This document shows, piece by piece, positions 197 through 46,431 of a stretch of DNA of 64,000 nt (positions are counted from its first letter, which is position 1; every line of letters begins with the position of its first letter). Under the pieces are notes generated by a model. The model was not told where the DNA came from and did not search any database. It worked only from the letters and a program-made list of their open reading frames with translations. The stretch comes from Ignavibacteriota bacterium (GTDB lineage: Bacteria > Bacteroidota > Ignavibacteria > UBA10030): contig JAKEEG010000068.1 of the NCBI GenBank assembly GCA_022616555.1, positions 912 through 64,911 on the forward strand, read 5' to 3'. Both the position numbers and the translations under genes were made by a program.

Positions 197-225
197 ATAG
201 GGGTTCACTCTATATGAACCCCTAT
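197..225. repeat. TAGGGG-N-CCCCTA palindrome, copy a (ataggggttca-ctctata-tgaacccctat)
   Basis: Perfect 11 bp inverted arms, 21 nt upstream of the clpS ATG. Confidence 0.6.
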
Positions 226-245
226 GATATGCTGTCTGAATAGAT

Positions 246-551
246 ATGCCAGATGAAATAAAAGAAATACCAACAGTCGAACGGCCCATCACCGAGAAAG
301 AATCCGACCAGGATGTTCTCACACAAGAGCCTGCAAAAGTTATCCTCTTTAACGACGAAGTACATACCTTCGACGAAGTGATCGACCAGATTATCAAAGC
401 AACCCGGTGCAGCCGTCCACGCGCTGAAGCTCTGACGTGGGAAGTGCACCATACGGGCAAAGCCGCCGTGTATGAGGGTCCGATAGACGATTGCATGAAG
501 GTTTCCGGCGTGCTGGAGGAAATAGCGTTACACACACAGATTGAGGTTTGA
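246..551 (+). CDS. clpS: ATP-dependent Clp protease adaptor ClpS
   Basis: 101 aa; characteristic ClpS core VILFNDEVHTFDEVIDQIIKA. Confidence 0.9.
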   Translation: MPDEIKEIPTVERPITEKESDQDVLTQEPAKVILFNDEVHTFDEVIDQIIKATRCSRPRAEALTWEVHHTGKAAVYEGPIDDCMKVSGVLEEIALHTQIEV

Positions 552-564
552 TTAGGAGGTTTCG

Positions 565-768
565 ATGGCTAATCTTATCAAAGACACACAGGTTTTGTAC
601 GATGCCCGAGGCAAAAAGAGCCATGTGGTCCTGCCGTATGACAAGTACAAAAAACTCATAGAACGGCTTGAGGATGCTGAGGACATTCAGTTAATGAAAG
701 AAGTTGAGAACGAAGTTGGTATCCCTTGGGAGGAAGCTAAAAAGAAAATCCGGCGAAGGAAACGATGA
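565..768 (+). CDS. Type II antitoxin (Phd/YefM- or RelB-like) paired with the downstream RelE/ParE toxin
   Basis: 67 aa basic/acidic small protein; its stop overlaps the toxin start (ATGA at 765-768). Confidence 0.55.
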   Translation: MANLIKDTQVLYDARGKKSHVVLPYDKYKKLIERLEDAEDIQLMKEVENEVGIPWEEAKKKIRRRKR

Positions 769-1022
769 GTTACAAACTCATTGTAAAGCCGACTGCTTTA
801 AAAGAAATTGACGACCTTCCTGCCTCTTTTCAAGAGAGGGTTATCTCTACCCTTGATTCTCTACAGGCAAATCCTCGGCCAATAGGTTGTAAGAAGCTAG
901 CAGGAGCGAAAAATCGCTGGCGGATAAGAATTGGAGATTACAGAATATTGTACATGCTGGATGATTCGAAACACGAAATTTATATTTACAGAGTAGCCCA
1001 TCGCAAGGATGTTTACACGTGA
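765..1022 (+). CDS. RelE/ParE-family toxin (mRNA interferase type)
   Basis: 85 aa; C-terminal RIRIGDYRILYMLDDSKHEIYIYRVAHRKD resembles RelE/StbE toxins; 4 bp overlap with the antitoxin. Confidence 0.75.
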   Translation: MSYKLIVKPTALKEIDDLPASFQERVISTLDSLQANPRPIGCKKLAGAKNRWRIRIGDYRILYMLDDSKHEIYIYRVAHRKDVYT

Positions 1023-4021: not shown

Positions 4022-4024
4022 CAC

Positions 4025-4783: not shown

Positions 4784-4799
4784 GCTATTCGCTCTCTCT

Positions 4800-5387: not shown

Positions 5388-5492
5388 TTTTAGGACTGCA
5401 TCAACTCCCGATGGGATCGCTTTGCGACATGTTGATGCAGTGCCCCAATAACGATTGGGGCACTCCCACGACAAAATTTACCGCCTTCTCCT

Positions 5493-6908
5493 ATGCCCCA
5501 ACAACAGCGTAAGGATTTCCTTATCCCGCTGCTGACGGTCGTCTCAGACGCCATCGCGATTGAGGCGGCATTTTTGTTCTCTTTCTGGCTTCGCTTTTAC
5601 TCTCCCCTGACGGAATATCTGCCCGTCGAGTTAGGATTACCACCGCTTGACGCCTACATCTTCGGATCGTTTGTCGTCATTCCGGCGTGGCTACTGCTGT
5701 TCAACTCCCGCAAAATGTATACCCCGCGCCGCGTCATATATTTCTCGGACGAATTTTTTGCGGTTGTACGGCTGGTATTCTTCGGCATGCTGATGGTAAT
5801 GTCGGCCGCGTTTTTCTACCGAGCTTTTTCCTATTCGCGCGTCGTGTTTGCACTCCTGGGCGTGACGTCGGTTGCGTTCATTGCACTAGGCCGGTACGTT
5901 GTCTTGCGCTTCGAACAGCGTTGGTATACTCGCGGAAAAGACGTGAAGCGAGTGTTAATCGTTGGCTCCAACCCGTTCGCGCTGCGAGTCCTCCAAAGCA
6001 TTAAGCAGAACCCTAAACTCGGTTACCAGATCGTCGGCTACTGCGCTCCCAACGGACGAGGCGACGGCGCTTCGGTTTACGCAGAGCAATTAGGAAGTAT
6101 TGAAGATGTGCCTTCGCTCATACGGTCGCAGCATATCGATATCGTCCTTGTCGCACTGGATTATACCGACCATGCAAAGCTCTACGAAATGGTGAAAGAG
6201 TGTGAAGGGTTAAATACGGAAATCATGATGGTACCGGATACGCTTGAGTTGATGACGAGTCAGGTACGCATAAAAGAAATCGAAGGCATTCCGTTTATCA
6301 AGCTCAAAGCTGTGCCGCTGACAACGTGGAATCATATCATTAAGCGGACGTTTGACATTGTGTTCGCAGTTGTCGTCTTGATTCTCATAAGCCCTGTGTT
6401 ATTGCTGTTAGCAATCATCATTAAGCTGGATTCAAAAGGGCCGATGCTGTTTCTTCAAGAGCGCGTTGGCTTGGATGGGAAACCGTTCAACGTGATGAAA
6501 TTTCGTTCGATGCGAGTCGATGCGGAACAACAAACGGGCCCCGTCTGGGCGAAAAAGGACGACCCGCGAACAACACGCATCGGGGCATTCCTCCGTCGCT
6601 TCAGCTTGGATGAACTACCACAACTTTTCAACGTGCTGAAAGGTGATATGAGCATTGTTGGTCCACGGCCTGAGCGCCCCCATTTCGTGGAGCAATTCAA
6701 GAAAGAAATCCCAAAATATCTCGACCGGCATCGCGTGAAAACAGGTATGACCGGCTGGGCGCAGGTCAACGGCCTGCGAGGCAACGCTCCCATCGAAGAG
6801 CGAACAAAATACGACATCTACTACATTGAGAATTGGTCGTTGGTATTCGACCTGAAGATTATCCTGAAGACGATTCGAGCGGTTTTATTTGGTGAGGACG
6901 CGTACTAG
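5493..6908 (+). CDS. Polyprenyl-phosphate sugar phosphotransferase (WcaJ/WbaP-like initiating glycosyltransferase)
   Basis: 471 aa; N-terminal TM helices and C-terminal bacterial sugar-transferase motif DELPQLFNVLKGDMSIVGPRPE. Confidence 0.85.
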   Translation: MPQQQRKDFLIPLLTVVSDAIAIEAAFLFSFWLRFYSPLTEYLPVELGLPPLDAYIFGSFVVIPAWLLLFNSRKMYTPRRVIYFSDEFFAVVRLVFFGMLMVMSAAFFYRAFSYSRVVFALLGVTSVAFIALGRYVVLRFEQRWYTRGKDVKRVLIVGSNPFALRVLQSIKQNPKLGYQIVGYCAPNGRGDGASVYAEQLGSIEDVPSLIRSQHIDIVLVALDYTDHAKLYEMVKECEGLNTEIMMVPDTLELMTSQVRIKEIEGIPFIKLKAVPLTTWNHIIKRTFDIVFAVVVLILISPVLLLLAIIIKLDSKGPMLFLQERVGLDGKPFNVMKFRSMRVDAEQQTGPVWAKKDDPRTTRIGAFLRRFSLDELPQLFNVLKGDMSIVGPRPERPHFVEQFKKEIPKYLDRHRVKTGMTGWAQVNGLRGNAPIEERTKYDIYYIENWSLVFDLKIILKTIRAVLFGEDAY

Positions 6909-6911: not shown

Positions 6912-7715
6912 TTACTTCAACCTAAACAAAAACGTGACAACAGCGTTCTGCTCTAACTGGGGCTGGGTAGAACGGAGAGGTTCAAACTTCCACAAACGTA
7001 CCGCTTTCATTGCAGCGTCTTCGAGCTTCGTATTCCCTTTCTGCTCAGGCTGGACGGCTTTCACGCTGCCATCCGGCATCACCATAGTTAAAATTTTAAT
7101 CTGCGCTTGAACGTTCACGCCTTCCGGATAGCGGGGCAAATCTCCGCTGATGCGTTTGCGCGAGCCGCCGTCAAGCCATTGAATCGAGTAACTCGCACCA
7201 CGGTCGATATCGGCTCCGACGCCGGAACTGCCTAACGGCCCCGTGCCGCCGGGACCTCCGCCGACCGTTTCTCCGGGCGTCAATCGCTCACGCTCGCCAA
7301 CCTGCTGGTCGGAACGAACATCTCGCTCACCGACTGCACGCGATTCATCAGGACGGGCTTTTGTGCCTGCTACCGGCGCATCCACCTTATCTGTTTTTAG
7401 GACGTTAATAACTTCATCAGACATATCGCGCATTCGCCGTTCGGGTAAAATCACCGGCTGAGATGCTTTTTGCGTTTTCGCAGTGGTCTTTGAGGCGGTT
7501 GTTGTCGCTTTAACGGGACTGGCGGGTGTAACCGACGGGACAGTGCTCAAACTTGGGCTTGTGGTAGCACCCCAGCTAACTTCCACAAACTCCTGTGTTT
7601 CGAGTGCATCGGGCAGGTAGATAAAAAATAGCAAGAGCAGCAATGCTGCATGCATGAGCACGGAGCTAAACCACCCAATCGTTCGTTCACGCGAGAATTT
7701 CATGCTTTTTCTCAC
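6912..7715 (-). CDS. TonB-family energy transducer (C-terminal TonB domain)
   Basis: 267 aa; N-terminal TM helix, Pro/Thr-rich linker, C-terminal TonB-like fold; last gene of the exbB-exbD operon. Confidence 0.7.
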   Translation of the reverse strand: MRKSMKFSRERTIGWFSSVLMHAALLLLLFFIYLPDALETQEFVEVSWGATTSPSLSTVPSVTPASPVKATTTASKTTAKTQKASQPVILPERRMRDMSDEVINVLKTDKVDAPVAGTKARPDESRAVGERDVRSDQQVGERERLTPGETVGGGPGGTGPLGSSGVGADIDRGASYSIQWLDGGSRKRISGDLPRYPEGVNVQAQIKILTMVMPDGSVKAVQPEQKGNTKLEDAAMKAVRLWKFEPLRSTQPQLEQNAVVTFLFRLK

Positions 7716-8119
7716 TGGGTCGGCTGCGTGGCGATTAAAAACCTCGAGGCGCCGACGCCCTTTGCAATATCCAGAACTTGAACGACACTTTGAAGATTGA
7801 CGGTCTTATCGGCGTTCACGACCACCACACGGTCCTTGTTTTCGCCAAGAAATTTAGAAAGTTTTGCGCCCAGCGTCTCCGTTGTTACCTGCTCGTTATT
7901 CAGATACATCCCACCCTGCTCGGTCAACGAGATAATCGCTTCCCGCTTTGTATCGACTTCACCCGTTTCGGATTTCGGGAGCTGAACTTTAATGCCGGGC
8001 TGGATCACGAACGAGGAGGAGAGCAAAAAGAAAATGAGCAGCAACAGAACTATGTCTGTCAGCGACGAAAATGCAAACACACTCAGATGCTTTTGTTCCG
8101 CCTTGAATTTCATTTTCAA
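7712..8119 (-). CDS. exbD: Biopolymer transport protein ExbD/TolR
   Basis: 135 aa; single TM helix plus periplasmic domain; start overlaps the TonB gene by 4 bp. Confidence 0.8.
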   Translation of the reverse strand: MKMKFKAEQKHLSVFAFSSLTDIVLLLLIFFLLSSSFVIQPGIKVQLPKSETGEVDTKREAIISLTEQGGMYLNNEQVTTETLGAKLSKFLGENKDRVVVVNADKTVNLQSVVQVLDIAKGVGASRFLIATQPTQ

Positions 8120-9753: not shown

Positions 9754-11424
9754 TTACCAACGGTAACTGAGGCCGCCGGTCACCATTAACGGCGGCGCTT
9801 GATAGCCTTTCCAGATTTCGTACTTTTCATTGGCGATGTTCTGGGCATCGACAAAAATGTTAAGCGACGGCAACGGTTCGTATTCTATTCTCAAGCCGAC
9901 CAACAAGAACCCCGGCAACTCTGCCAAGGCAGCAAGGCTTGATTCTCGGACGCCATAATAGCTCACGTTCGGTGTGAAGCTGACTCCGAACGGAAACCAA
10001 TGCGTGTACGAGCCGCCGGCTTCGTACTTCGGCACGTACGGCACCGCCCTGTCAGAAGCGTCGTTCTTTGTAGAGTTCACCGCCACCTTACCAGAAACAT
10101 AATCATTCGGCGTTAACTTTGCAAACCCTTCTGCTTGATATTTCCAGAATGTTGCTCCAGTATACGCAAATTGCCATATTCCCGCATTGAGAGGGTCGAA
10201 AGGCATGGCATACAGGTCCACGCGTTCATTGCTCGCGCTCAACAGTGTCTTGACGGAGCCCGACCAGTCGGATTCTATTGCTGCTGTGAGTCTCCGATTA
10301 ACATCTGAATGCCAAAAAGCAGAACCGGCGGAAAGATACGGGTTCGCTTGTACGCTTCCCTCAAGCTCATGAAAGCCAACCCTGCCCGAATAGGAAACAG
10401 ACGCCAGATGCGCTCCACCAACACGGTATCCGATCGCAACATCCGGATAAATCCGGGAGAAACGCTGATTCGACATTCCTTTTACCGAGTACGCGCTCGC
10501 CGCGCCTTGCAGGAACAAATTATTCCACCAGTAACGCGAGGTGCCTACGCGGAGCTGAAAGAGCGTCAAGTGTCCAGAATGCGCCCCTGAGAGGGTTGCG
10601 TTCGTATAACTGACGTTACCAACCAACGTCACCGAGCTCAACGGAAGCTCCGCATTCAACCCCAGCGTTGCTTTTTGTTGTAAGGTTTTCGCAGCGCTAT
10701 CGTCAACTTGAAAATAAGAATAGTCGAGATTTGGCGTCAGCGAAAATTCGGTTAACTGCTCCTGCGAGAGCGACAATCCCAGACGATAATTTGTTATCTC
10801 ACGACGAGTCGCCGGAGAGGGCGAGCCGTAAAAACGGTAGCCCTCCGAACCATAGGAGACATTACCTCCCAGCCTGTATCCTTCAAATGCGCCACTCTCG
10901 AAAAGCATTCCTCCACTCACTCCGAGATGGCCTCCCGAACGATCTGAATGGTCGACATATCCTTTCGTGCGATGGTAACCGACACTGACCAGATAATCAT
11001 AAGTGGGAAGAGCTTGTCCCAACCATAACTCTGCGCGCGGAGTAAAGTAACTTCCTAAACTTGCCATCGCCTGCCCGCTGAGAATCGATGAAGACGAAAG
11101 GAGCGATTCTTTCTGCCTGTTTTCAAGCTCTACAGTAACTCGCTCACGCGACCCCATGACATGATAGCCCCTGACGTCTGCCACGCGTGGGCGTTCCGCG
11201 ACACCTAGCTTGTACACGTCCGGAGCGCTCAATGAAACAATCCCGGTGATGACAAACTCCGGTAGCTCAATTTTGGGCAGCTGCGGATTTTGTGCTTCCT
11301 CCGTCTGCGGCAGTTCGACTTTTCGGGCCTCGGGTTCTTTTTTCTCAGTCGGCCCAGTACGCTGTTGAGCGTGCACTGACACTGTCAGCGCTGCCAGTAG
11401 AATATATGCAACAAGCCGTCTCAC
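9754..11424 (-). CDS. Outer-membrane beta-barrel protein (porin-like, function unknown)
   Basis: 556 aa; signal peptide, alternating beta-strand pattern, C-terminal aromatic residues (...GGLSYRW). Confidence 0.5.
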   Translation of the reverse strand: MRRLVAYILLAALTVSVHAQQRTGPTEKKEPEARKVELPQTEEAQNPQLPKIELPEFVITGIVSLSAPDVYKLGVAERPRVADVRGYHVMGSRERVTVELENRQKESLLSSSSILSGQAMASLGSYFTPRAELWLGQALPTYDYLVSVGYHRTKGYVDHSDRSGGHLGVSGGMLFESGAFEGYRLGGNVSYGSEGYRFYGSPSPATRREITNYRLGLSLSQEQLTEFSLTPNLDYSYFQVDDSAAKTLQQKATLGLNAELPLSSVTLVGNVSYTNATLSGAHSGHLTLFQLRVGTSRYWWNNLFLQGAASAYSVKGMSNQRFSRIYPDVAIGYRVGGAHLASVSYSGRVGFHELEGSVQANPYLSAGSAFWHSDVNRRLTAAIESDWSGSVKTLLSASNERVDLYAMPFDPLNAGIWQFAYTGATFWKYQAEGFAKLTPNDYVSGKVAVNSTKNDASDRAVPYVPKYEAGGSYTHWFPFGVSFTPNVSYYGVRESSLAALAELPGFLLVGLRIEYEPLPSLNIFVDAQNIANEKYEIWKGYQAPPLMVTGGLSYRW

Positions 11425-17700: not shown

Positions 17701-18062
17701 TCGAGCTTCGCGCCGATGAGCTCGACTCCGTACTTGCGCAACACGCCGCTCTCTGCGAGAGCGACGGCGGTGTTGAGTGCGGTTTGTCCACCCATTGTTG
17801 GGAGGATAACATCCGGGCGCTCGCGGTCGATGATTTTCTCGACGAACTCCGGGGTAATCGGCTCGATGTACGTGGCATCGGCGAGGTCGGGGTCCGTCAT
17901 GATCGTCGCTGGATTGCTGTTGATGAGGATAACGCGGTAGCCCTCTTCGCGCAGGACTTTGCAGGCTTGGGTGCCGGAGTAATCAAATTCGCACGCCTGA
18001 CCGATGACAATCGGTCCGGATCCGATAATTAATATGGACTCAATATCCGTGCGTTTGGGCAT
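14754..18062 (-). CDS. carB: Carbamoyl-phosphate synthase large subunit
   Basis: 1102 aa; N-terminus [33 protein letters not shown]; duplicated ATP-grasp halves. Confidence 0.95.
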
Positions 18063-18084: not shown

Positions 18085-18112
18085 GTAGGGGTTCACACCT
18101 CTGAACCCCTAC
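18085..18112. repeat. TAGGGG-N-CCCCTA palindrome, copy b (gtaggggttca-cacctc-tgaacccctac)
   Basis: Perfect 11 bp arms, 23 nt upstream of the carB start codon on the minus strand. Confidence 0.6.
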
Positions 18113-18204: not shown

Positions 18205-19113
18205 TCAATGCCCACCACCCTCCAACATCTTGAATCCATGAATCAACCACGGGAACAACGCATCCAACGACTCCTGCACTCCTCGTTTAGAGCCAGGCAG
18301 ATTAATAATAACCGTACTGCCGCACACGCCGGCTTTTCCGCGTGAGAGCATCGAGAGCGGCATGCGCTCTTGACCGTAGGCGCGGGCGGCTTCGTTAATA
18401 CCCGGGATTTCACGCTCGATGACGCGGGTGGTGGCTTCTGGTGTTACGTCGCGGGGACCTAAACCCGTCCCGCCTGTAGTAATGACAAGGTTGAGCTTCA
18501 TCTCGGTCGCATACTTGCGAAGCCTCGCCTCGATCTTCGGAACATCATCATCCACTACTGAGTAATCGGCAACCTCAACACCCTCCTGCTTTAGGCGCTC
18601 GACCATGTATTTCCCCGACGTATCCTCCTTTTTGCCCATTGCGACAGAGTCAGATACAACGAGAACAGCAGCCTTGAGCTTCATCCCCTCAGGCGGCTTG
18701 AAGTCCGTCTTCCCCCCCGTTTTTTTAATGAGCTTAATCTCCGAAATCACCATCGATTCATCCACAGCTTTCATCATATCATAGAGCGTCAACGCCGCGG
18801 CTGATGCGGCGGCAAGGGCTTCCATCTCCACGCCGGTTTTGTAGATGGCTTTGACTTCAGTGATGATTTCAATTCGATTATCATACACATCAAACCGGCA
18901 ATCGATAAAATCCAACGGCAGCGGATGACAATAAGGAATCAGTATGCTCGTATTCTTCGCCGCCTGCACGGCTGCAACTCGAGCAACGGCAAGGGCATCC
19001 TTCTTTGGAAGTGTGTTTTCCCTTAATGCCTTGATTGCCTCGGAGCTTGCCGTAAGTGTCGCAGAGGCTATCGCCGTGCGGAGCGTGCTGGATTTTTTGG
19101 AGATGTCGATCAT
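18205..19113 (-). CDS. Bifunctional molybdenum cofactor biosynthesis protein (MoaC fused to a MoaB/MogA domain)
   Basis: 302 aa; N-terminal MoaC-like region (KTGVEMEALAAASAAALTLYDM) and C-terminal MogA/MoaB-like region (LVITTGGTGLGPRDVTPEAT). Confidence 0.8.
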   Translation of the reverse strand: MIDISKKSSTLRTAIASATLTASSEAIKALRENTLPKKDALAVARVAAVQAAKNTSILIPYCHPLPLDFIDCRFDVYDNRIEIITEVKAIYKTGVEMEALAAASAAALTLYDMMKAVDESMVISEIKLIKKTGGKTDFKPPEGMKLKAAVLVVSDSVAMGKKEDTSGKYMVERLKQEGVEVADYSVVDDDVPKIEARLRKYATEMKLNLVITTGGTGLGPRDVTPEATTRVIEREIPGINEAARAYGQERMPLSMLSRGKAGVCGSTVIINLPGSKRGVQESLDALFPWLIHGFKMLEGGGH

Positions 19114-19168: not shown

Positions 19169-19246
19169 AGACCCCATCCTCACCTTCCCCTAAGAGGGGA
19201 AGGAACACATTCCCTCTCCTCTTAGGAGAGGGATAGGGTGAGGTCT
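19169..19246. repeat. Nested-hairpin intergenic repeat, family D, copy 1
   Basis: Outer arms cctcacc...ggtgagg enclose two hairpins (ttcccct-aaga-ggggaa and ccctctcc-tctta-ggagaggg); near-identical copy at 62090. Confidence 0.6.
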
Positions 19247-19315
19247 TCAAGAATCAATTTTCCATTTCTCGCTCATTTTTCCTATATTAAATCTAGCAGA
19301 AGACAGGAGAACACA

Positions 19316-22093
19316 ATGCCAAGCTCTGACAGTTTCAAAACCCACTCAGAACTCAAAGTCGGAAGTAAAACCTACAAGTATTACTCGCTCCCCAAACTCG
19401 AAAAAAGCATCGGGACAAAGCTCAACAGGCTACCCGTATCCCTGAGAATCCTGCTCGAAAATCTCCTCCGCAAAGAGGACGGCAGGGTCGTGCGCAAGGA
19501 AGACATTGAAGCGCTGGTGCGTTGGAATCCCAAAGCTACGCCTGACAAAGAAATCGCCTTCATGCCCGCGCGCGTGCTGTTGCAGGACTTCACCGGCGTT
19601 CCGTGCGTCGTTGATTTGGCAGTGATGCGCGATGCGATGATTGCCATGAAGGGCAATCCCGAAAAGATCAATCCCCTGCAACCCGTCGACCTGGTCATCG
19701 ACCACTCGGTGCAAGTGGATGAATACGGCACGGCGGCTTCATTCCTGCTGAACGTCGAAAAGGAATTCGAACGCAACAAGGAGCGCTACGCGTTCCTCCG
19801 CTGGGGACAGCAAGCGTTCAAAAACTTCCGTGTCGTGCCGCCGGGCACTGGAATCGTACACCAAATCAATTTGGAATATATCGCTCAAGCAGTGTTTACC
19901 TCTCAAGCAGATGGCACAACGTACGCTTACCCAGACACACTTGTGGGCACGGACTCGCACACGACGATGATCAACGGGCTTGGCGTACTCGGTTGGGGCG
20001 TCGGCGGCATCGAAGCAGAGGCAGCGATGCTCGGTCAGCCGATCTCGATGCTCATTCCACAAGTCGTCGGATTCAAACTCCATGGCAAACTTCGCCCAGG
20101 CGCCACGGCAACCGACCTGGTGCTTGTCGTAACGCAGATGCTGCGCAAGAAAGGCGTCGTCGGCAAATTTGTGGAGTTCTATGGTAACGGACTTTCATCA
20201 CTCAGCCTCGCCGACCGCGCAACCATCGGCAACATGGCGCCCGAGTACGGCGCGACGATGGGATTCTTCCCCATTGATAACGAAACGCTAAACTATTTGC
20301 GCTTCACCGGACGCAGCGCTGACACCGTCGCGCTCACCGAAGCCTACTGCAAAGAACAGGGCATTTTCCATTCTATGAACATGCCAGAGCCAGAGTTCAG
20401 CGATACGCTGGAACTTGACCTCGCCAGTGTCGAGCCGAGCCTTGCCGGACCCAAACGTCCGCAAGACCGCGTGACACTCTCGACCTCCAAACGCTCGTTC
20501 CGCACTTCACTTGTGGAGATGCTCGAAGCAAAGGGCGCGTCTATTAATAAAGAAGCCGCGTCCAAGTGGGTTGATGAGGGCGGCAGCGCTGCGACGGCTG
20601 TCGTTGAGAAATCCATCGTGGACAACTGCCTCAAGACCGTCCTCGTACGGAAGAATGGTTCAGAGTTCGAACTGATGCACGGCTCGGTTGTCATCGCCGC
20701 CATCACGAGCTGCACGAATACATCGAACCCTTCGGTGATGGTCGCCGCCGGATTGCTTGCGAAGAACGCTGTCGAGCGCGGATTGAAATCCAAACCGTGG
20801 GTGAAGACGAGCCTTGCGCCTGGCTCAAAAGTTGTGACAGACTACCTTGCGGAAGCGAAACTCTCCGGCTATCTCGACCAGCTTGGCTTCAACCTTGTCG
20901 GCTACGGCTGTACAACGTGCATCGGCAATAGCGGTCCATTGCCGGAATCCATTGCTAAGGCGGTACAGGAAAACGACCTCGTAGCGGTTTCCGTACTTTC
21001 CGGCAATAGAAACTTCGAGGGTCGAATCAATCCCCATGTCCGCGCAAACTATCTCGCCTCTCCCCCGCTTGTAGTCGCGTATGCACTTGCCGGCACAATG
21101 AACATCGACATCCAAAACGATCCCATCGGCACCGGGAAAGACGGGAAGCCTGTGTACTTGAAAGATATCTGGCCCTCTCCCGAAGATGTCGAGAAAACGA
21201 TCAGAGCTTGCGTAAAGTCTGAGATGTTCCACAAACAATACTCGAACGTCTTCGAGGGCGAAAAGGAATGGAGCTCGCTTCCCGTGCCAAAAGGTGCACA
21301 ATATGTATGGGATGGCGGCTCGACGTACATCAAAGCGGCGCCGTATTTTGAAAGCCTGCCGCGTGACCCCAAGCCACTACAAAACATTCACGGTGCGCGT
21401 GTGCTGGCAGTGCTCGGCGATTCAGTTACAACCGACCACATCTCTCCCGCCGGGTCGATTGCGCAGAAATCCCCAGCTGGGAAGTATCTGATGGAGCACG
21501 GCGTTCAGCCAGCGGATTTCAACTCGTACGGCTCACGCCGCGGCAACCATGAAGTAATGATGCGCGGCACGTTCGCGAATATCCGCCTGCGTAACCAAAT
21601 GGCGCCGGGCACGGAAGGCGGCTGGACGATTCATCCGTCGTCCAAAGAGCCGATGACAATCTTCGACGCGGCAATAAGGTATAAAGAAGAGAACGTTCCG
21701 CTTGTCATTATCGCCGGAAAAGAGTACGGCTCCGGCTCCTCACGCGATTGGGCTGCGAAAGGCCCACGCTTGTTGGGCGTTCGCGCTGTCATAGCCGAGA
21801 GCTTCGAGCGCATCCACCGCAGTAACCTTGTCGGTATGGGCGTGCTGCCGTTGCAATTCGAAGAAGGCCAGAAAGCGAAAAGCCTCGGGTTAACGGGCTT
21901 TGAGACATTCGATATCGAAGGCATTGCCGAGAACTTGCAACCGATGAAGAAAATGACCGTAAAAGTGAAGAAAGCCGACGGCGGTACTATTACGTTCACC
22001 GCCGTTGCCCGCATCGACACGCCGAATGAAGTCGATTATTACAAGAACGACGGCATTTTGCAATATGTGCTGAGGACACTGTTGAAGAAGTAA
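19316..22093 (+). CDS. acnA: Aconitate hydratase A
   Basis: About 925 aa from the ATG at 19316 (AGGAGA ribosome-binding site 6 nt upstream); the longer ORF from 19238 is probably a spurious extension; strong aconitase-A similarity throughout. Confidence 0.9.
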
Positions 22094-22096: not shown

Positions 22097-22124
22097 GTAG
22101 GGGCGTTTAATTAAACGCCCCTAC
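22097..22124. repeat. TAGGGG-N-CCCCTA palindrome, copy c (gtaggggcgttta-at-taaacgcccctac)
   Basis: Perfect 13 bp arms, immediately after the acnA stop and about 63 nt upstream of the 22187 CDS. Confidence 0.6.
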
Positions 22125-30184: not shown

Positions 30185-30406
30185 TCACTCCATAGGCAGG
30201 AACCAGTGGATGTAACCGCACTTCTCGCAGACTAGGCAGCGAGCGCTTTTGTTCAACCAATCGAGGTCGAAAAACGACAGAGCTGCTGTGTTAAGCTGAG
30301 CTTTGCGCTCGCTAAAACGCGAATGCTCACACACTTGACATCGGATATGAATACCACCGACGATTTTTTCTGACGCAGGTTGTTCTTTGCTTTTGAAGAT
30401 TCCCAT
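30185..30406 (-). CDS. Small zinc-ribbon protein (two CxxC pairs), function unknown
   Basis: 73 aa; CQVCEH...CLVCEKCG. Confidence 0.45.
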   Translation of the reverse strand: MGIFKSKEQPASEKIVGGIHIRCQVCEHSRFSERKAQLNTAALSFFDLDWLNKSARCLVCEKCGYIHWFLPME

Positions 30407-30429: not shown

Positions 30430-30457
30430 GGTAGGGCACAACTTGTTGTGCCCCTAC
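30430..30457. repeat. TAGGGG-N-CCCCTA-like palindrome, copy d (tagggcacaa-cttg-ttgtgcccctac)
   Basis: Near-perfect arms (one extra C); about 24 nt upstream of the 30406 start and overlapping the dinB-family stop. Confidence 0.5.
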
Positions 30458-30948
30458 TTGAGTTGCCGATAATACGCAACCAAGTCAGTTGCGACGGGCT
30501 TTACGTTAATTTGCCTGAGCATCGTCACCACCTGACCGCGATGATACGTGGAATGATTCACCACATGCTGAATCAGGTGCCAGAGCGGCTGTGTGTAGGG
30601 ATTACCACGGATGTCTTTGTATGATAGCGGCTCTTTCAGTTTTTGCTCTGTGAGCGATGCGATGAACGCATCCCGCTCGGCGCGCAGGGTGTCCCACTTG
30701 GATTTGAGAAATGGGAAATCCGGATAATCTTCCTCTTTGAGCGGTGCGGTTGGACTAACGCCTTTCCAGCGCTCGAGCCAGACCCAGTCGGAACTATACG
30801 TGTGCACGAGCGTGCCGCGGATGCCACCGTGGCTGGAGTTGAGGTTTTTCGCGTACTGGTCCTGCGGCACAGTGGCGACGATGTCGAGGATGCGATTCGT
30901 CGCCCATTTGTCGAAGTCGATGAGTGTGTTGATATTTGTCAAGGTCAT
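30454..30948 (-). CDS. DinB/YfiT-family protein (DinB_2 four-helix bundle, metal-dependent)
   Basis: 164 aa; conserved His pattern (HTYSSDWVW ... HLIQHVVNHSTYHRGQV) typical of DinB_2. Confidence 0.75.
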   Translation of the reverse strand: MTLTNINTLIDFDKWATNRILDIVATVPQDQYAKNLNSSHGGIRGTLVHTYSSDWVWLERWKGVSPTAPLKEEDYPDFPFLKSKWDTLRAERDAFIASLTEQKLKEPLSYKDIRGNPYTQPLWHLIQHVVNHSTYHRGQVVTMLRQINVKPVATDLVAYYRQLK

Positions 30949-34438: not shown

Positions 34439-34468
34439 GGGCGACGTGGCGCCACGTCGCCTGCGCAG
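34439..34468. repeat. Palindrome family E, copy 2 (ggcgacgtg-gcgc-cacgtcgcc-tgcgca)
   Basis: Shares the GGCGACG...CGTCGCCTGCGC arms with copies at 88 and 62047; lies in a divergent intergenic region. Confidence 0.45.
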
Positions 34469-37479: not shown

Positions 37480-38928
37480 ATGGAATCATTGTTGGACAAA
37501 TTATTAGAAATTACCCAGTGGGGTGCTGATAATATCTGGTGGCCCGAAATCCCGGGTGTTCCGTTTTTCCCCGGCGTGGTGGTGCTTTTGGCAATTACCG
37601 GCATCTACATGTCGTACAAAACGGGGTTTATTCAAGTCCGGCGGCTGGGGCTTGCGATCAAGTTCATGCTGCGCGGGCGGAGCAAGTCAGACATGGAAGG
37701 CAGGACCGGGGACGTAACGCCCTTCCAGGCTCTGATGACTGCGCTTGCCGCGACAGTCGGCAACGGAAACATCGCGGGCGTGGCGACTGCCATCGCAAGT
37801 GGCGGACCCGGCGCGCCGTTCTGGATGTGGATGACAGCGGTGTTCGGCATGGCGACGAAGTACGCCGAAGGCATGCTCGGGTTGAAATACCGCATCAAGA
37901 CGGCGGACGGTACGTTCAGCGGCGGAGCAATGTATTACCTGCGAGACGGGCTTAAGAATAAAGGACTTGGGAAATTTCTCGCGTTCTGGTTTTCTGTTGC
38001 GGTCATTTTTATGGCGACGTTCGGCAGCGGCAACATGGCGCAATCGAATTCCATCTCCCTTGCGCTCAACAGCGATTTCGGTATTCCGTTCGTCGTGACG
38101 GGTATCTTGCTAGCGATATTGACTGGTGTGGTCATCATCGGCGGCATTAAGCGCATTGCGGTAGTGGCTGAGCGACTTGTGCCGGGCATGATTGTGCTCT
38201 ACATGGGCGCGGGACTGTATGTGATTCTCGCGAACTTCACCAATATTCCTGCTATTCTCATGATAGTGTTGGAATCAGCATTCACCAATGAAGCGATGGT
38301 CGGCGGATTTCTTGGGCACACAGTGAAAGAAGGCATCCGCTTTGGCGTTGCGCGAGGGACACTCTCGAACGAATCGGGCATCGGGTCGTGCTCCATTCCG
38401 GCCGCCGCCGCGAAAGGCAATGAAGCGGCGGCGCAGGGCATGGTCGCCATGATGGGCACATTCATCGACACCATTATCGTCTGCAGCATGACCACATTCG
38501 TGATTTTGAGCTCCAACCTGCACCCGCACACAACAGGATTGACGAGCACTGAATTAACAAAATCCGCGTTCGCAGTCGGCCTCGGATCCGATTTGGGCGG
38601 CTGGATTGTAAGCTTGAGCAGCTTCTTGTTCGGCTATACAACACTCATCGGCTGGTCCTATTATGGCGAGCAGGGGGCGAAATATCTCTGGGGCGTAAAA
38701 GCAACAATGCCGTATCGCTATATCTTCTGCGCGTTCGCATTTGCCGGAGCAGTGTTCCAAGGCAAATATTTGCAGATCGTGTGGAACTTCGGCGACATTG
38801 GCAACGCGCTGATGGCGATTCCGAATTTGATTGGATTGATTCTCCTGGGTGGCATCATCAAATCCGTAACGGATGATTACCTGAAGCGGTGGGATGCCAA
38901 CCAAATTACCAGCCCGTTTGGGGATTAA
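37480..38928 (+). CDS. Alanine/glycine:cation symporter (AGCS-family amino acid carrier)
   Basis: 482 aa; AGCS-like TM topology and conserved motifs (ATVGNGNIAGVATAI, GGPGAPFWMW). Confidence 0.85.
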   Translation: MESLLDKLLEITQWGADNIWWPEIPGVPFFPGVVVLLAITGIYMSYKTGFIQVRRLGLAIKFMLRGRSKSDMEGRTGDVTPFQALMTALAATVGNGNIAGVATAIASGGPGAPFWMWMTAVFGMATKYAEGMLGLKYRIKTADGTFSGGAMYYLRDGLKNKGLGKFLAFWFSVAVIFMATFGSGNMAQSNSISLALNSDFGIPFVVTGILLAILTGVVIIGGIKRIAVVAERLVPGMIVLYMGAGLYVILANFTNIPAILMIVLESAFTNEAMVGGFLGHTVKEGIRFGVARGTLSNESGIGSCSIPAAAAKGNEAAAQGMVAMMGTFIDTIIVCSMTTFVILSSNLHPHTTGLTSTELTKSAFAVGLGSDLGGWIVSLSSFLFGYTTLIGWSYYGEQGAKYLWGVKATMPYRYIFCAFAFAGAVFQGKYLQIVWNFGDIGNALMAIPNLIGLILLGGIIKSVTDDYLKRWDANQITSPFGD

Positions 38929-38942: not shown

Positions 38943-38970
38943 GTAGGGGTTCAATATATTGAACCCCTAC
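38943..38970. repeat. TAGGGG-N-CCCCTA palindrome, copy e (gtaggggttcaatat-atattgaacccctac)
   Basis: Perfect 28 nt palindrome between convergent genes, just before a terminator. Confidence 0.6.
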
Positions 38971-38977
38971 AATAAAA

Positions 38978-39008
38978 ATCCCGGCTCGCGAGAGCCGGGA
39001 TTTTTTGT
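38978..39008. terminator. Bidirectional rho-independent terminator (cccggctc-gcga-gagccggg flanked by A/T runs)
   Basis: 8 bp GC stem followed by ttttttg on plus; A-run on the other side serves the convergent minus-strand asparaginase gene. Confidence 0.7.
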
Positions 39009-41223: not shown

Positions 41224-41266
41224 AAAAAAGACCCCGAAACTAGTTCGGGGTGACGTTCTTTTTTCG
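41224..41266. terminator. Bidirectional rho-independent terminator (hairpin B: accccgaa-actag-ttcggggt flanked by A/T runs)
   Basis: 8 bp stem; T-run on both strands; terminates the beta-lactamase-family gene; an inverted near-identical copy lies at 58051. Confidence 0.6.
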
Positions 41267-41290
41267 TTTCTTACGCTATCATTGTGTTTA

Positions 41291-42439: not shown

Positions 42440-42519
42440 CGTTCTACTCTATTCTCTAAATTGTAGTGAAAAATGTACCGAGGGGACGGATATAAGATAA
42501 AGAATTTGGGAGGAAAAAA

Positions 42520-43344
42520 CTAATAACTTTCTTTTTGGGAGGGAAATTTTTTTGTTTTCACATCGTTCACGTACGCGCCGACCGCTGTGCGTATCGTATC
42601 GGCGAGCCGTGCGTATCGCCTGACAAACCGCGGGTGAAAATCTTCATAAATTCCCAGCATGTCGGAAACCACCAACACCTGGCCATCGCATTGTAGGCCT
42701 GCACCTATACCGATTGTAGGAATGGAAAGAGACTTGGTAATTTTCCCTGCGAGGGAGGAGGGAATTTTTTCCAGCACAACCGCGAATGCCCCGGCTTCTT
42801 CGAGCGCCTTCGCGTCCCGCAGAATACGCTTGGCTTCTCCCGCCGAGACGCCTCGCGGCTGATACCCACCGAACTGGCGAATTGATTGCGGGGTAAGCCC
42901 CAAATGCCCCACGACGGGTATCCCGGCTTGCGTCGTCATACGCACAAGCTCGGCTATGCGCTCGCCGCCTTCAAACTTCACAGCGCCCGCGCCGGTTTCT
43001 TTCATCACTCTGCCGGCGTTGCGGAAGCCTTCCTCGGCGCTCGCTTGGTAGCTCATAAACGGCATATCCAGCACCACCATCGCCCTTTCCACGCCTCGGA
43101 TGACTGCCTTCGTGTGGTAAATCATTTCTTCGAGGGTAACGGCAAGTGTCGTCTCGTGCCCCTGGAATACCATCCCGAGCGAATCACCGACGAGAATAAG
43201 GTCAACACCCGCCTGGTCAAGCAAGCGTGCGGTCAAGTAATCGTATGCGGTAAGGCATGCAATCTTAGAGCTGCCGCGTTTCATTTCAGCGATGGTGCGC
43301 GTCGTAACGCGCTTGGGACCTGAGCCAGCAGTAGAGTTTTTCAT
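42520..43344 (-). CDS. panB: 3-methyl-2-oxobutanoate hydroxymethyltransferase
   Basis: 274 aa; [10 protein letters not shown] and GHLGLTPQS motifs. Confidence 0.9.
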
Positions 43345-44132
43345 AGTGTGCGGACGGCGTCTTTAAGGTGTGATTCGAATGTCAATGCCCATTTTTTCTC
43401 AAAGCCGCGCTGTATTGCCGCCGCGACTTCTTCGAACGTGATAGCCCTGTTGAGTATAGATTTCACATCCGTCGTTTTCATCGACAATTCCGCTAGGAGA
43501 GCGTCCCGTTCGGCATCGCTCTCGAACTTCAAGAACTCTGCGATGCGCAGGTGGTCATTTCCTAGTAGAATCGAGCCGTGCTGGAGGATGATTTCCTTCC
43601 CGTGAAACCAGAACCGCCTTTGCGCGCTGCCAACGAGCTTGCGGCCGTTGAACTTTATTTCGTGCCGCGCTGAACTGCTAAAACAAGCTGCGCCGGATGT
43701 TGCGCGATACAAAGATGGGAAATCAGGCTGGGATTTTTCGAGCGACGCACCGACACCAAGTTTTTCTAGGCCACACAGCAGCGCTTCACTAATCAGACGA
43801 TAGATTGCTGAAATATTTGTGTCACCAAGAACTTCAAGGTTTTCAAAACCATAAAGGTCTGAGATAACGCTATACGTCAATTCATCCGAATGCAATATCG
43901 CTCGCCCTCCCGTAGGGCGGCGAACGATATCGATTCCCGCGCGTTCTGCGGCGTGTGTGTCGATGTCATCGAGCGATTGGTTCCAGCCATAGGAAATCGC
44001 CACGGGACTCCATCCGTACACGCGAATGGTGGGCAACCGCTCGCTGTCCGCTATCTCGCGCGCGAGCTGCTCATCATACTGCATGTTAAACGCGCCTGAT
44101 TTAGCGCCTGTATGTTCGAAGAGCCAGGACAT
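43341..44132 (-). CDS. Lipoate/octanoate-protein ligase family protein (BPL/LplA/LipB catalytic domain)
   Basis: 263 aa; [11 protein letters not shown] motif typical of LplA-like ligases; overlaps panB by 4 bp. Confidence 0.7.
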
Positions 44133-44926
44133 TACCTGTTCCGCTTGGGTCCGGGGATGATGCCCCGCTTGCTGTTGCCGATGAAATCCAGCACGCGTTG
44201 CACTTCCGGCACAAGCTCAACTTCGCTCTTAATCCGCTCGGCAGCCTGGCTGACGTTAAGTTGGGACCGATAGATAAGCCGGAAGGCCTGCTCAAGCAGT
44301 GAAATCGTTTTTTCGGAAAACCCGCGACGCTGCAACCCGATGGAGTTGAGTTTTTCAAAGCACAACGGTTCCTGTCCTGCAAGCACATACGGCGGAACGT
44401 CTTTCGTTGCGCGAAAACCGCCGCCGATCATCGCGTGCGCTCCGATCGTAACGAACTGATGGACTGGCGTTAACCCGCCGACGATGGCATAATCCTCCAC
44501 CGTTACATGGCCTGCCAGCGCAACGCAATTCGCGAGGATAACATGGTTACCGACGACGCAGTCATGGGCGGCATGCGTATACGCCATAAACAGGCAATCG
44601 TTTCCAATGACAGTTTTACCTTTGTCAATTGTTCCGCGGTTAAGCGTCACGTACTCGCGAATCACCGTCCGGTCACCCACCTCAAGCGTCGTTGCCTCAC
44701 CCTTATACTTTAAATCCTGCGGCGGAGCGCCGACGGAAGCTCCAGGGAAAATTTTGCAGTCGCGTCCGACGCGCGCACCGTTGAAGAGTACAGCATGGGG
44801 GCCAATCCATGTCCCGTCACCAATGGTAACATCGTCCTCGACGACGGCAAACGGGCTCACAGTAACGCCTTTACCCAATTGCGCTTTTGGGCTTACGACC
44901 GCGCGCGGGTCTATTTGAATGCTCAT
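44132..44926 (-). CDS. lpxA: Acyl-ACP--UDP-N-acetylglucosamine O-acyltransferase
   Basis: 264 aa; hexapeptide-repeat left-handed beta-helix with an LpxA-like N-terminus. Confidence 0.9.
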   Translation of the reverse strand: MSIQIDPRAVVSPKAQLGKGVTVSPFAVVEDDVTIGDGTWIGPHAVLFNGARVGRDCKIFPGASVGAPPQDLKYKGEATTLEVGDRTVIREYVTLNRGTIDKGKTVIGNDCLFMAYTHAAHDCVVGNHVILANCVALAGHVTVEDYAIVGGLTPVHQFVTIGAHAMIGGGFRATKDVPPYVLAGQEPLCFEKLNSIGLQRRGFSEKTISLLEQAFRLIYRSQLNVSQAAERIKSEVELVPEVQRVLDFIGNSKRGIIPGPKRNR

Positions 44927-46389
44927 CAGTGTTGTTGTGGGTTCTTTTCGGTTGGAGTTTTCGCCGGCGCGACAGAGCCGTTGCCGCCGGGTTCCTGGCG
45001 GTCAATTACGGCGGCTGTAAATTCTCCCTCGGCGACAAGCGCGCCATCGACGAATGCCCTACCTTTTATCTGAATGACCTTCGTTCTCCGGCTCACCATC
45101 TCGATGTCCAGTACGAGTGTATCTCCGGGGGTCACCGTCTTGCGGAACTTTACATTGTTGATCGCCATGAAATATACCAGCTTATTGCCGGGGTTCTCTG
45201 AACCGTTCAACAGCAGGATACCACCGGCCTGCGCCATCGCTTCAATGATCAACACACCGGGCATCACGGGCTGACCCGGGAAGTGTCCCTGAAAAAAGGA
45301 CTCGTTCATCGTCACGTTCTTGACGCCGACGACGCGCTGGTCGATCTGGAAGTCGATAATTTTGTCAACCAACAAAAAAGGATAACGATGCGGCAGAATG
45401 CGCTGGATGGCGTTGATGTCAAACACCACGCCTTCCTTTTTCTCGTGTTGGTATTTTTTTACAATCTTTTTCTGCTGGTAGAGTTTGCGGACTTTCCGCG
45501 CGAACTCAATGTTGCTTGCATGCCCCGGCCGTGCGGCAAGGACCTGCGCCTTCAGCGGCGCGCCGATGAGCGCCAAATCTCCCATCAGGTCGATGAGCTT
45601 ATGACGCGCAGGCTCATTGCGGAAGCGGAGAGACTTGTTGTTGAGTACGCCCGTGGTGCCGAGGATAACGGAATGTGAGATGCCGAGTTTCTTCGCGAGT
45701 TTCTTGATTTCTTCGTCGGGCAACTCGCGGTCGACAATCACAATCGCATTGTCTAAATTGCCACCTTTGATCAACCCCTGGTCGCGTAGGATTTCAACTT
45801 CGTGCAGGAAACAAAATGTGCGCGAGGCGGCGAATTCCGAAACAAATTCTTTCTCGAGATTGAAAAGACCGGTGTGTTGGCTGCCGAGAGCGGGGTTCTG
45901 GTAATCTACCATCACCGTCAGGCGGTAATCGTCCGTCGGCAGCGCAACAATATCGACGCCTTGTTCTTCGTTCTGGTAGCGGATGGTTTGGTCGATAATG
46001 AGGTAGTCTTTAGGTGCTTCCTGCTCTTTTAAACCAGCTTCGAGGATCATATCGACAAACGGCTTTGCACTGCCGTCGCCAATGGGCGGCTCAATGTTGT
46101 CCAACTCGATGATAATATTATCCACTTGCATGCCGACAATAGCGGCAAGTACGTGCTCAACTGTATAGACACGGGCTTCACCGATACCGATTGTCGTGCC
46201 CCGGGCGATATCAACAACGTGGTCGACATCGGCAGGGATTTCCGGCGCACCGCCGATATCCACGCGACGAAAGCGAATGCCGTAATCTTCAGGCGCGGGC
46301 TTAAGCGTCATGGTCGTCGTAACGCCCGTATGCAAACCGACGCCGTGCATCGAGACCGGCTTCTTAATCGTGTGTTGTTGGATGAGCAT
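44926..46389 (-). CDS. lpxC-fabZ: Bifunctional UDP-3-O-acyl-GlcNAc deacetylase / 3-hydroxyacyl-ACP dehydratase (LpxC-FabZ fusion)
   Basis: LpxC N-terminal region (VSMHGVGLHTG) fused to a FabZ hot-dog domain (GHFPGQPVMPGVLIIEAMAQ); the start is most likely the ATG at 46389 rather than the 46422 ORF start, which lies inside the upstream palindrome. Confidence 0.9.
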   Translation of the reverse strand: MLIQQHTIKKPVSMHGVGLHTGVTTTMTLKPAPEDYGIRFRRVDIGGAPEIPADVDHVVDIARGTTIGIGEARVYTVEHVLAAIVGMQVDNIIIELDNIEPPIGDGSAKPFVDMILEAGLKEQEAPKDYLIIDQTIRYQNEEQGVDIVALPTDDYRLTVMVDYQNPALGSQHTGLFNLEKEFVSEFAASRTFCFLHEVEILRDQGLIKGGNLDNAIVIVDRELPDEEIKKLAKKLGISHSVILGTTGVLNNKSLRFRNEPARHKLIDLMGDLALIGAPLKAQVLAARPGHASNIEFARKVRKLYQQKKIVKKYQHEKKEGVVFDINAIQRILPHRYPFLLVDKIIDFQIDQRVVGVKNVTMNESFFQGHFPGQPVMPGVLIIEAMAQAGGILLLNGSENPGNKLVYFMAINNVKFRKTVTPGDTLVLDIEMVSRRTKVIQIKGRAFVDGALVAEGEFTAAVIDRQEPGGNGSVAPAKTPTEKNPQQH

Positions 46390-46403
46390 AGGATCCCTTT
46401 TCT

Positions 46404-46431
46404 TCATAGGGGCACGTTGCAACGTGCCCCT
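46404..46431. repeat. TAGGGG-N-CCCCTA palindrome, copy f (ataggggcacgttg-caacgtgcccctac)
   Basis: Perfect 13 bp arms, 15 nt upstream of the probable lpxC-fabZ start. Confidence 0.6.

Follow-up and report, generated by a model that had tools for sequence, protein, structure and literature searches.

The six TAGGGG...CCCCTA palindromes found in the 64-kb stretch of DNA analysed here (the window) are very probably selfish DNA hairpins, 27–29-nt double-foot REP copies of the RAYT/TnpA_REP subclass 2.4 type. Their anatomy is that of a repeat, they recur across phyla with a bias to the 3' ends of genes, they are absent from the relatives sampled and, in other genomes, they are associated with RAYT genes.

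Anatomy of the six copies

A search of the window for TAGGGG-N10-24-CCCCTA returned five exact matches (198-224, 18086-18111, 22098-22123, 38944-38969 and 46407-46432), all with TAGGGG-N14/15-CCCCTA spacing, as compared with a chance expectation of 0.01; five matches were reached in none of 100 shuffles. A sixth copy at 30431-30457 (GTAGGGCACAACTTGTTGTGCCCCTAC) lacks one G in its left arm, a 1-nt deletion that leaves an imperfect palindrome. The sequence-only reading had described six perfect palindromes, and the family is real, but only three copies are perfect (22097, 38943 and 46407), while two contain non-palindromic loops of 6–7 nt. It had also located every copy, although the last pair of coordinates was 2 nt too low (46406-46433 with the feet included) and the fourth copy starts at 30431. 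The copies and their neighbours are as follows.

E1, 197-225: ATAGGGGTTCA-ctctata-TGAACCCCTAT; TTCA type with feet A...T in place of G...C and a 7-nt loop; icd stop at about 82 (114 nt before), ATG of a clpS-like gene at 246 (20 nt after).
E2, 18085-18112: GTAGGGGTTCA-cacctc-TGAACCCCTAC; TTCA type; genes on the minus strand, moaC/moaB stop at 18205 (92 nt before), carB ATG at 18062 (22 nt after).
E3, 22097-22124: GTAGGGGCGTTTAATTAAACGCCCCTAC; perfect 28-nt palindrome of a type common across metagenomes; acnA stop at 22093 (3 nt before), next ORF 62 nt after.
E4, 30431-30457: GTAGGG-CACAAC-TT-GTTGTG-CCCCTAC; left arm without one G; a DinB-like gene (30454-30948) takes its stop codon from the element, the minus-strand TAG at 30454-30456, and the ATG of a 73-aa Zn-ribbon gene follows after 24 nt, at 30406.
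E5, 38943-38970: GTAGGGGTTCAATATATTGAACCCCTAC; perfect palindrome, TTCA type; agcS stop at 38928 (14 nt before), between a convergent gene pair.
E6, 46406-46433: ATAGGGGCACGTTGCAACGTGCCCCTAC; genes on the minus strand, lpxD stop at 46440 (6 nt before), conserved lpxC-fabZ ATG at 46389 (16 nt after).

The identities of the clpS-like gene, carB, moaC/moaB, acnA, agcS and lpxD were confirmed, as was an LpxC-like N terminus. The A foot of E6 makes an in-frame ATG at 46407-46405, upstream of lpxC. The positions first proposed for the copies stand: four lie 16–24 nt before the ATGs of clpS, carB, lpxC-fabZ and the Zn-ribbon gene, one follows acnA (E3) and one lies between convergent genes (E5). A stop codon was found 0–114 nt upstream of each of the six, and within 0–14 nt in four of them. 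Five spacers are unidirectional and one is convergent, and one copy overlaps a stop codon.

Each unit consists of GTAG, a GGG-based stem with its loop, CCC and CTAC, with stems of 11–13 bp and within the 20–40 bp size of GTAG-tagged REPs. The left foot is GTAG, the tag expected of such REPs, in four copies and ATAG in E1 and E6, and five of six end in the mirrored CTAC. None of the six copies departs from the GGG/CCC pairing, alignment pairs 8-28, 9-27 and 10-26 being the three unvarying G-C pairs at the bottom of the stem. This layout agrees with the published definition of the double-foot REPs of subclass 2.4 (Quentin, Siguier, Chandler and Fichant 2018, BMC Genomics 19:475, PMC6006769), namely GT[AG]G as the 5' foot, three G-C pairs at the base of the stem and C[TC]AC as the 3' foot; Table S1 of that work gives the 28-nt examples GTAGGGGCGAAAAATTTTTCGCCCCTAC, GTAGGGGCACAGCGCGCTGTGCCCCTAC and GTAGGGGCGACCGGCCGGTCGCCCCTAC.

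The inner arms are of four types, TTCA/TGAA (three copies), CGTTTAA/TTAAACG, CACGTTG/CAACGTG and CACAAC/GTTGTG. In the alignment of the six sequences 93% of cells were paired, both sides changed in 6 of 12 pairs and the covariation score was 0.49, as compared with 0.19 in shuffles, while sliding the alignment register collapsed pairing to 25–50%. The claim that the inner arms covary with pairing kept was borne out, as was the reading of the family as a REP-like structured element in which pairing persists between arms of differing sequence. All six copies fold as single-stranded DNA hairpins (−9 to −15 kcal/mol, z-scores −3.8 to −8.1). The inner-arm differences reflect distinct, globally distributed REP subtypes and not compensatory evolution in situ at the six loci.

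Six copies were counted in 82 kb of the MAG contig (the 64-kb window plus 17.8 kb of flanks), and neither the flanks nor the window's last 18 kb contain any. Each copy stands alone, no closer than 4 kb to the next, and their flanks lengthen the palindrome by at most 2 bp, which sets them apart from REPINs (Bertels & Rainey), made of two inverted REPs.

Distribution in other bacteria and bias to gene 3' ends

The TTCA...TGAA type (TAGGGGTTCA-N-TGAACCCCTA) matched at least 120 unrelated loci in about 20 or more phylum-level groups, isolate genomes (Emticicia and Brassicibacter) among them, and the copies with full flanks carried G at −1 in 104 of 119 and C at +1 in 105 of 119. The same G and C feet were found for the type of E3 (CGTTT...AAACG) at no fewer than 120 metagenome loci, and the 26-nt core of E6 was identical in a Thermodesulfovibrionales MAG (L019). 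The patchy distribution across phyla resembles that of subclass 2.4 REPs. The window differs from the set of Quentin et al. in that its host is an Ignavibacteriae-labelled MAG, in that its TTCA...TGAA type does not occur in their Table S1 (0 matches for TAGGGGTTCA) and in that the spread of the identical core over phylum-level groups is wider than they document.

Copies elsewhere favour gene 3' ends, in agreement with the literature on GTAG REPs. In the cross-phylum set, copy density per kb of spacer fell from 1.75 between convergent genes to 0.69 between unidirectional and 0.35 between divergent ones, and the copies lay a median of 33 nt from the upstream stop vs 133 nt to the downstream start. 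These values do not support the idea, put forward in the sequence-only reading, that insertion is targeted to start codons. The proximity to start codons seen in the window is best explained by the tolerance of short operon spacers, since these accept an insertion only between the stop and the RBS region, which produces an apparent placement 16–24 nt before the ATG.

No flanking protein family was enriched when 2650 ORFs from 120 loci were clustered all-against-all, the largest cluster covering 7 of the 120 loci, and we therefore rejected a conserved neighbouring gene as the cause of the cross-phylum copies. Phage carriage was also considered: only 10 viral-contig stretches contained the element, and a RAYT gene was absent from all 10. 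A second palindrome family of the window, GGCGACG-N8-CGTCGCC, does not travel with the GTAG family in the other loci examined, about 1.8 Mb of which contained none of it.

Around 44 kb of sequence from relatives (69–86% MoaC/MoaB identity) contained zero copies. The orthologous junctions between moaCB and carB and between the DinB-like and Zn-ribbon genes were empty in these relatives (L128/L129), the latter junction being 9 nt long without the element; the relatives are fairly distant, and these empty sites are evidence of absence and not of recent insertion.

Association with RAYT genes

The element lay inside or at most about 130 nt from a subclass-2.4 RAYT-like gene at 9 of 120 TTCA-type loci and 8 of 120 CGTTT-type loci, an association with RAYT/TnpA_REP genes far above chance. 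These genes match the NCBIfam model REP_Tyr_transpos with E values of 1e-11 to 1e-13, below the model cutoff, and their homologues carry HUH and Tyr motifs. Read in frame, the palindrome (GTA GGG GTT CAA AAT TTT GAA CCC CTA) encodes VGVQNFEPL in the HUH-Tyr linker, and the translated palindrome was present in the linker of 104 of the best 120 of 5518 homologues. Quentin et al. (2018, PMC6006769) describe genes of subclass 2.4 into which REPs are inserted in frame. The window copies resemble the subclass-2.4 (Bertels group 4) double-foot REPs in the element itself, with the same 28-nt GTAG+GGG...CCC+CTAC, 4-nt centre and variable inner-stem subtypes; in other genomes that contain the same sequences, the resemblance extends to the associated RAYT genes with NH[IVF]H / WQ / YIxNNP, which have the REP in frame between HuH and Tyr.

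Motif search, tblastn and Pfam labels detected no RAYT gene in 82 kb of the MAG contig (window, L001 and L264). We infer that a RAYT encoded in this genome may have mobilised the six copies. In the four genomes sampled, few or no dispersed copies were present within 10 kb either side of the RAYT gene; having a RAYT gene does not guarantee REP proliferation. We know of no RAYT for which REP transposition in vivo has been demonstrated, and our literature searches found no biochemistry report on the subclass 2.4 enzyme and no match to the exact DNA or peptide strings of the element.

A further reading, which we regard as rather unlikely, is that the linker palindrome (VGVQNFEPL and variants) did not arise as a chance insertion but serves as a heritable REP master copy, gene and hairpin being transferred together horizontally, often in restriction-modification or Gabija-type defence loci, after which the enzyme would seed 28-nt copies genome-wide. 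The occurrence of an identical 28-mer in roughly 20 or more phylum-level groups would then be accounted for. In a bolder form of this reading, the RAYT clade would have a role in such defence loci; our literature search returned nothing specific on RAYTs in defence loci, and RAYT-like proteins are absent from PADLOC.

Alternative explanations

The hairpins might, whatever their origin, have been domesticated as RNA structures acting as 3'-end stabilisers or partial attenuators (between lpxD and lpxC-fabZ, between moaCB and carB, and at the acnA 3' end), which we consider improbable. The stability of the folds, the position 0–14 nt past stops in four of six copies and the highest density per kb in convergent spacers elsewhere are consistent with such a role, as are the A-run and T-run that lengthen the stem in some genomes in the manner of a bidirectional terminator; parts of the REP literature also tie REPs, including some of E. 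coli, to mRNA stability and termination. However, no window copy has a T-run directly after the hairpin (0/6), which excludes intrinsic terminators, and E5 is followed by its own canonical terminator hairpin and T-run at 38974-39005, while another terminator precedes E1. A putative secondary role of this kind would explain neither the origin of the copies nor their identity across phyla; the RNA hairpins may affect neighbouring genes.

Very improbable is a shared cis-regulatory dyad or leader hairpin, through which a regulator or translation control would act on clpS, carB, lpxC-fabZ and the Zn-ribbon gene via the TAGGGG...CCCCTA arms, as the sequence-only reading had alternatively suggested. 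The placement of four of six copies shortly upstream of starts and the invariance of the outer arms speak for it, but two copies are purely downstream of genes, E5 lying between convergent genes beside a real terminator, and the differing inner arms mean that half of any operator would vary. The hairpins also exclude the putative RBS and ATG of the downstream genes. The comparison of orthologous leaders, proposed for detecting regulatory conservation, argues in the same direction, since an operator or leader would be kept at orthologous regulatory positions and the junctions in L128/L129 lack the element. Identical sequences beside unrelated genes in many phyla, biased to stops and not to starts, together with the RAYT association, complete the case against this proposal.

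Palindromes that arose by chance or evolved locally as terminator-like structures, and likewise an artefact of assembly, to which short sequences from a MAG might point, have a negligible probability and are already refuted by the expectation given above, by the identity of the E1 region in an independent Logan assembly (L002), by the presence of the element in isolate genomes and by the lack of T-runs.

Several known classes were likewise rejected. A MITE does not fit, as a 28-nt hairpin makes up the entire unit, the flanks have no direct repeats and the flanks that match are reverse complements; no Rfam 15 family matched the window at gathering score; and a cyanobacterial HIP1-type context was dismissed, with no GCGATCGC in the window.

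Known systems and proposed mechanism

The GTAG-tagged REP superfamily (Di Nocera, De Gregorio and Rocco 2013, BMC Genomics 14:522), which includes E. coli REP/BIME and S. maltophilia SMAG, shares with the window copies the GTAG tag, short G-C-rich stem-loops and subfamilies that differ by complementary stem changes, and also sits between unidirectional or convergent ORFs near ORF ends, at times overlapping coding ends. Classical GTAG REPs carry an unpaired tag at a single end and often form dimers or clusters, whereas each window copy stands alone, its tag mirrored and engaged in base pairing. With the E. coli TnpA_REP-REP system and IS200/IS605 TnpA the likely common feature is recognition of a single-stranded DNA hairpin and an adjacent tetranucleotide by a HUH/Tyr enzyme; the enzyme subclass is different, and the element is the whole 28-nt palindrome and not an IS end.

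By analogy with these two enzymes, we suggest that the hairpin would form where DNA is single-stranded, such as the lagging-strand template; being palindromic, the element offers the same substrate on both strands. A Y1 HUH transposase-like enzyme could then recognise the GTAG foot and the stem base, cut and rejoin, so that copies would spread or be kept. Copies would survive where they are harmless, typically just past stops and, in tight operons, in the gap of a few bases between the stop and the RBS region. The RAYT gene of the subclass-2.4 clade usually has the same palindrome in frame, so REP and enzyme could be passed on jointly, a possible reason for the presence of identical REPs in many phyla.

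For annotation, the hairpins should not be taken to mark a regulon of clpS, carB, lpxC-fabZ or the other neighbours, while small side effects deserve a flag, namely the stop codon that one copy supplies to the DinB-like gene and the in-frame ATG that another places upstream of lpxC. GTAGGGG-N14-CCCCTAC is a very simple marker for RAYT subclass 2.4 activity, and identical REP subtypes common to a very wide range of bacteria make a good system for studies of REP/RAYT co-transfer and proliferation.

The palindromes of the window form a repeat family

A pattern search for TAGGGG-N10-24-CCCCTA found five exact matches in the window, while dinucleotide shuffles of the window gave an average of 0.01, which confirms that the repeat family is real. 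Six perfect palindromes had been described from the sequence alone; five copies match the pattern exactly, but only three are perfect, two have non-palindromic loops of 6-7 nt and one has a 1-nt bulge, and copy E4 is one G short in its left arm. The unit is 27-29 nt long including the flanking foot bases.

Table. The six copies (E1-E6, 5' to 3') and their neighbouring genes; coordinates are exact pattern matches except for E4
E1, 198-224: upstream icd, downstream clpS-like; 114 nt after stop, 20 nt before ATG
E2, 18086-18111: upstream moaC/moaB, downstream carB; 92 nt after stop, 22 nt before ATG
E3, 22098-22123: upstream acnA, downstream 210-aa ORF; 3 nt after stop, 62 nt before ATG
E4, 30431-30457: upstream DinB-like, downstream 73-aa Zn-ribbon; overlaps stop, 24 nt before ATG
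E5, 38944-38969: upstream agcS, convergent with an isoaspartyl peptidase gene; 14 nt after stop, ATG distance not applicable
E6, 46407-46432: upstream lpxD, downstream lpxC-fabZ; 6 nt after stop, 16 nt before ATG

The copies carry four inner-arm types, and the earlier observation that the arms keep pairing despite sequence differences held: 93% of the cells in the six-copy alignment were paired and 6 of 12 pairs had changed on both sides, with pairing and covariation falling far lower in shuffled and slid-register controls. Folding as ssDNA predicted hairpins for all six copies, at -9 to -15 kcal/mol. Every copy has a stop codon upstream, four are additionally 16-24 nt ahead of the next ATG, and none lies in a divergent spacer. 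At E6, the A foot makes an in-frame ATG (46405-46407), and the conserved LpxC start follows 18 nt downstream (MKKRDP-MLIQQ...). Between the clpS-like gene near E1 and alaS there is a RelB/Phd-like antitoxin and ParE toxin gene pair (window 565-1022; 10320-10777 of the fetched stretch L001).

The same elements occur in many phyla

A scan of a genome collection for the commonest window type (TTCA type, TAGGGGTTCA-N4-9-TGAACCCCTA) returned at least 120 loci. The matches listed came from Bacteroidota, Ignavibacteria, Zixibacteria, Deferribacteres, Desulfobacterota, Nitrospirota, Planctomycetota, Chloroflexota, CPR groups, Cyanobacteria, Deinococcota, Fusobacteria, Spirochaetes, Riflebacteria and Cloacimonadota, and included isolates of three Emticicia species and Brassicibacter mesophilus. 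Among these matches, 119 of 126 cores were 26 nt long, and the consensus was G-TAGGGGTTCAAAATTTTGAACCCCTA-C. Where both flanks were complete (119 copies), a G stood just before the core in 104 and a C just after it in 105, which makes the full unit a GTAG...CTAC palindrome of 28 nt. No protein family was common to the neighbours of the loci listed. The other window types are global too: the E3 type (CGTTT type, TAGGGGCGTTT...AAACGCCCCTA) had matches in at least 120 contigs from metagenomes and carried the same feet there, and the E6 core was found with identical sequence in a Thermodesulfovibrionales MAG.

The flanks prolonged the palindrome by at least 12 nt in 16 of the 119 cross-phylum copies listed (L003, L023, L054, L059, L076, L099, L102, L113, L115 and others), often with an A-run to its left and a T-run to its right, which places the REP at the apex of a long hairpin resembling a bidirectional terminator. 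Nested or partial tandem copies were seen at some loci (L010, L028, L069, L090, L091). A few IMG/VR contigs, viral or proviral (L135-L138, L141), also contained the canonical GTAGGGGTTCAAAATTTTGAACCCCTAC; their fetched stretches had no RAYT (REP-associated tyrosine transposase-like) gene.

The palindromes belong to the double-foot REPs

Among the matches listed, a Y1 HUH transposase-like gene contained the element, or lay no more than about 130 nt from it, at 9 of 120 TTCA-type loci and at 8 of 120 CGTTT-type loci. The encoded proteins matched the NCBIfam family 'REP-associated tyrosine transposase' with E values of 1e-11 to 1e-13, under the family cutoff, and had 5518 homologues, some of them named RayT or transposase. 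In the gene-embedded case the palindrome is read in frame (GTA GGG GTT CAA AAT TTT GAA CCC CTA, VGVQNFEPL), with the HUH motif (MPNHVHGII) on one side and the catalytic Tyr region (WQRNYYEHIIR) on the other; this is the only tolerable frame, since the other two contain TAG or TGA. Among the best 120 of the 5518 homologues, 104 carried the translated palindrome or a variant of it belonging to a different subtype (VGAKNFSPL, VGANNHSPL, VGAENFLPL).

Quentin et al. 2018 (PMC6006769) described TnpA_REP subclass 2.4 (Bertels group 4), patchily distributed among Cyanobacteria, Bacteroidetes and other phyla, with 'double foot' REPs (5' GT[AG]G, three G-C pairs at the stem bottom and 3' C[TC]AC) and in-frame REP insertions between HuH and Tyr in tnpA_REP. 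The window palindromes, and the RAYT genes linked to such palindromes in other genomes, correspond exactly to this description; the REP-like structured repeat was correctly sensed in the sequence-only reading, and belongs to a class already described. The 28-nt examples in Table S1 of that study include GTAGGGGCGAAAAATTTTTCGCCCCTAC and GTAGGGGCGACCGGCCGGTCGCCCCTAC, while the TTCA type is missing from it. GTAG REPs also form subfamilies with complementary stem variants (Di Nocera et al. 2013, PMC3733652).

Neither a RAYT gene (in the window and 17.8 kb of fetched flanking contig) nor additional REP copies (in the flanking 17.8 kb) were found. From the biochemistry of E. coli TnpA_REP and IS200/IS605, we infer that the window copies would have been mobilised by a RAYT.

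Four of the seven annotated neighbourhoods of RAYT-2.4 genes, those reached via protein look-ups, were defence loci. The RAYT gene (start 10001 in each) adjoins Gabija GajA, a fragmented GajB and DUF559 in Tenuifilum thalassicum (L130), follows an HKD-Snf2 helicase and a type IIG RE-MTase in Thermonema lapsum (L131) and in L132, with gene ends that overlap or almost abut, and lies inside a type I RM operon in L133 (HsdM-HsdS-DarG-like macro-RAYT-HsdR). RAYT-like proteins were absent from PADLOC, and at the three RAYT loci detected through the DNA pattern (L005, L067, L095) the neighbours were all ordinary.

Other repeats and features of the window

Table. Further repeats in the window
88-109, 34440-34461, 62044-62071: perfect palindromes, GGCGACG-N8-CGTCGCC
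19170-19250, 62092-62190: composite double-hairpin repeat

The GGCGACG-N8-CGTCGCC copies all differ in their centres (ATATATAT, TGGCGCCA, TTATATAA), one lies 6 nt past the icd stop, and none was found in about 1.8 Mb of other organisms' loci; the family has the CGTC motif, as do the 'CGTC-tagged' REPs of the literature. The composite repeat, which looks MITE-like, consists of the hairpins CCTTCCCCTaagAGGGGAAGG and CCCTCTCCT..AGGAGAGGG, bracketed by gaccccatcctca ... agggtgaggtct, and one copy is immediately upstream of acnA. A DUF4145 protein and a PycTM-domain (Pycsar-effector-like) protein are encoded at 56303-57614 (5542-6853 of the fetched stretch L264); GC content dips at 56-60 kb to the lowest value in the window (0.457 vs about 0.52), and this region is possibly a short insert of defence genes or foreign DNA.

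Copies are biased towards gene 3' ends

Table. Position of the cross-phylum copies among the matches listed, by rough ORF-based gene calls
Unidirectional spacer: 47 copies, 0.69 per kb of spacer
Convergent spacer: 32 copies, 1.75 per kb of spacer
Divergent spacer: 9 copies, 0.35 per kb of spacer
Inside an ORF: 12 copies, density not computed
Locus edge, unclassified: 34 copies, density not computed

In unidirectional spacers, the median gap of the copies listed was 33 nt to the stop upstream and 133 nt to the start downstream, which, together with the densities by spacer class, indicates a general bias to gene 3' ends and leaves the proposed targeting of start codons unsupported. The element's TAG doubled as a stop codon in six of the cross-phylum cases listed. 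GTAG REPs were likewise reported mostly between unidirectional or convergent ORFs, near ORF ends (Di Nocera et al. 2013, PMC3733652). The 16-24-nt spacing in the window arises where the element sits near the next gene; at E4 and E6, where the entire spacer is about 50 nt, the gap from the stop to the ribosome-binding region would plausibly be the sole tolerated insertion site.

Sampled contigs of relatives lack the element

We compared about 44 kb of contigs from relatives (L123-L129, MoaC/MoaB identity 69-86%), which contained no copy of the palindrome, while about four would be expected at the density of the window. The DinB|Zn-ribbon junction measures 9 nt in L128 and L129 and, E4 included, 47 nt in the window; the 85-nt moaCB|carB spacer of L128 and L129 has no element. 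The DinB-like protein ends in ...YYRTLTR* in these relatives and in ...YYRQLK*, with the TAG from E4, in the window; this stop codon (30454-30456) leaves the C-terminus one residue shorter than the relative's. The absence of copies and the empty orthologous junctions speak against a conserved regulatory site acting on the neighbouring genes, as the sequence-only reading had alternatively proposed, and argue for lineage-specific acquisition, the relatives compared being too distant to date the insertions. One relative (L126), with 75% MoaC/MoaB identity, has a Y1_Tnp (PF01797) gene of 161 aa at 7306-7791, about 2.4 kb from moaCB; its 10.9 kb are free of GTAGGGG...CCCCTAC palindromes.

Taken together, our results indicate that the six palindromes are a real repeat family within a described REP class; what deserves following up is how widely identical subtypes are spread across phyla, and the copy embedded in the gene.
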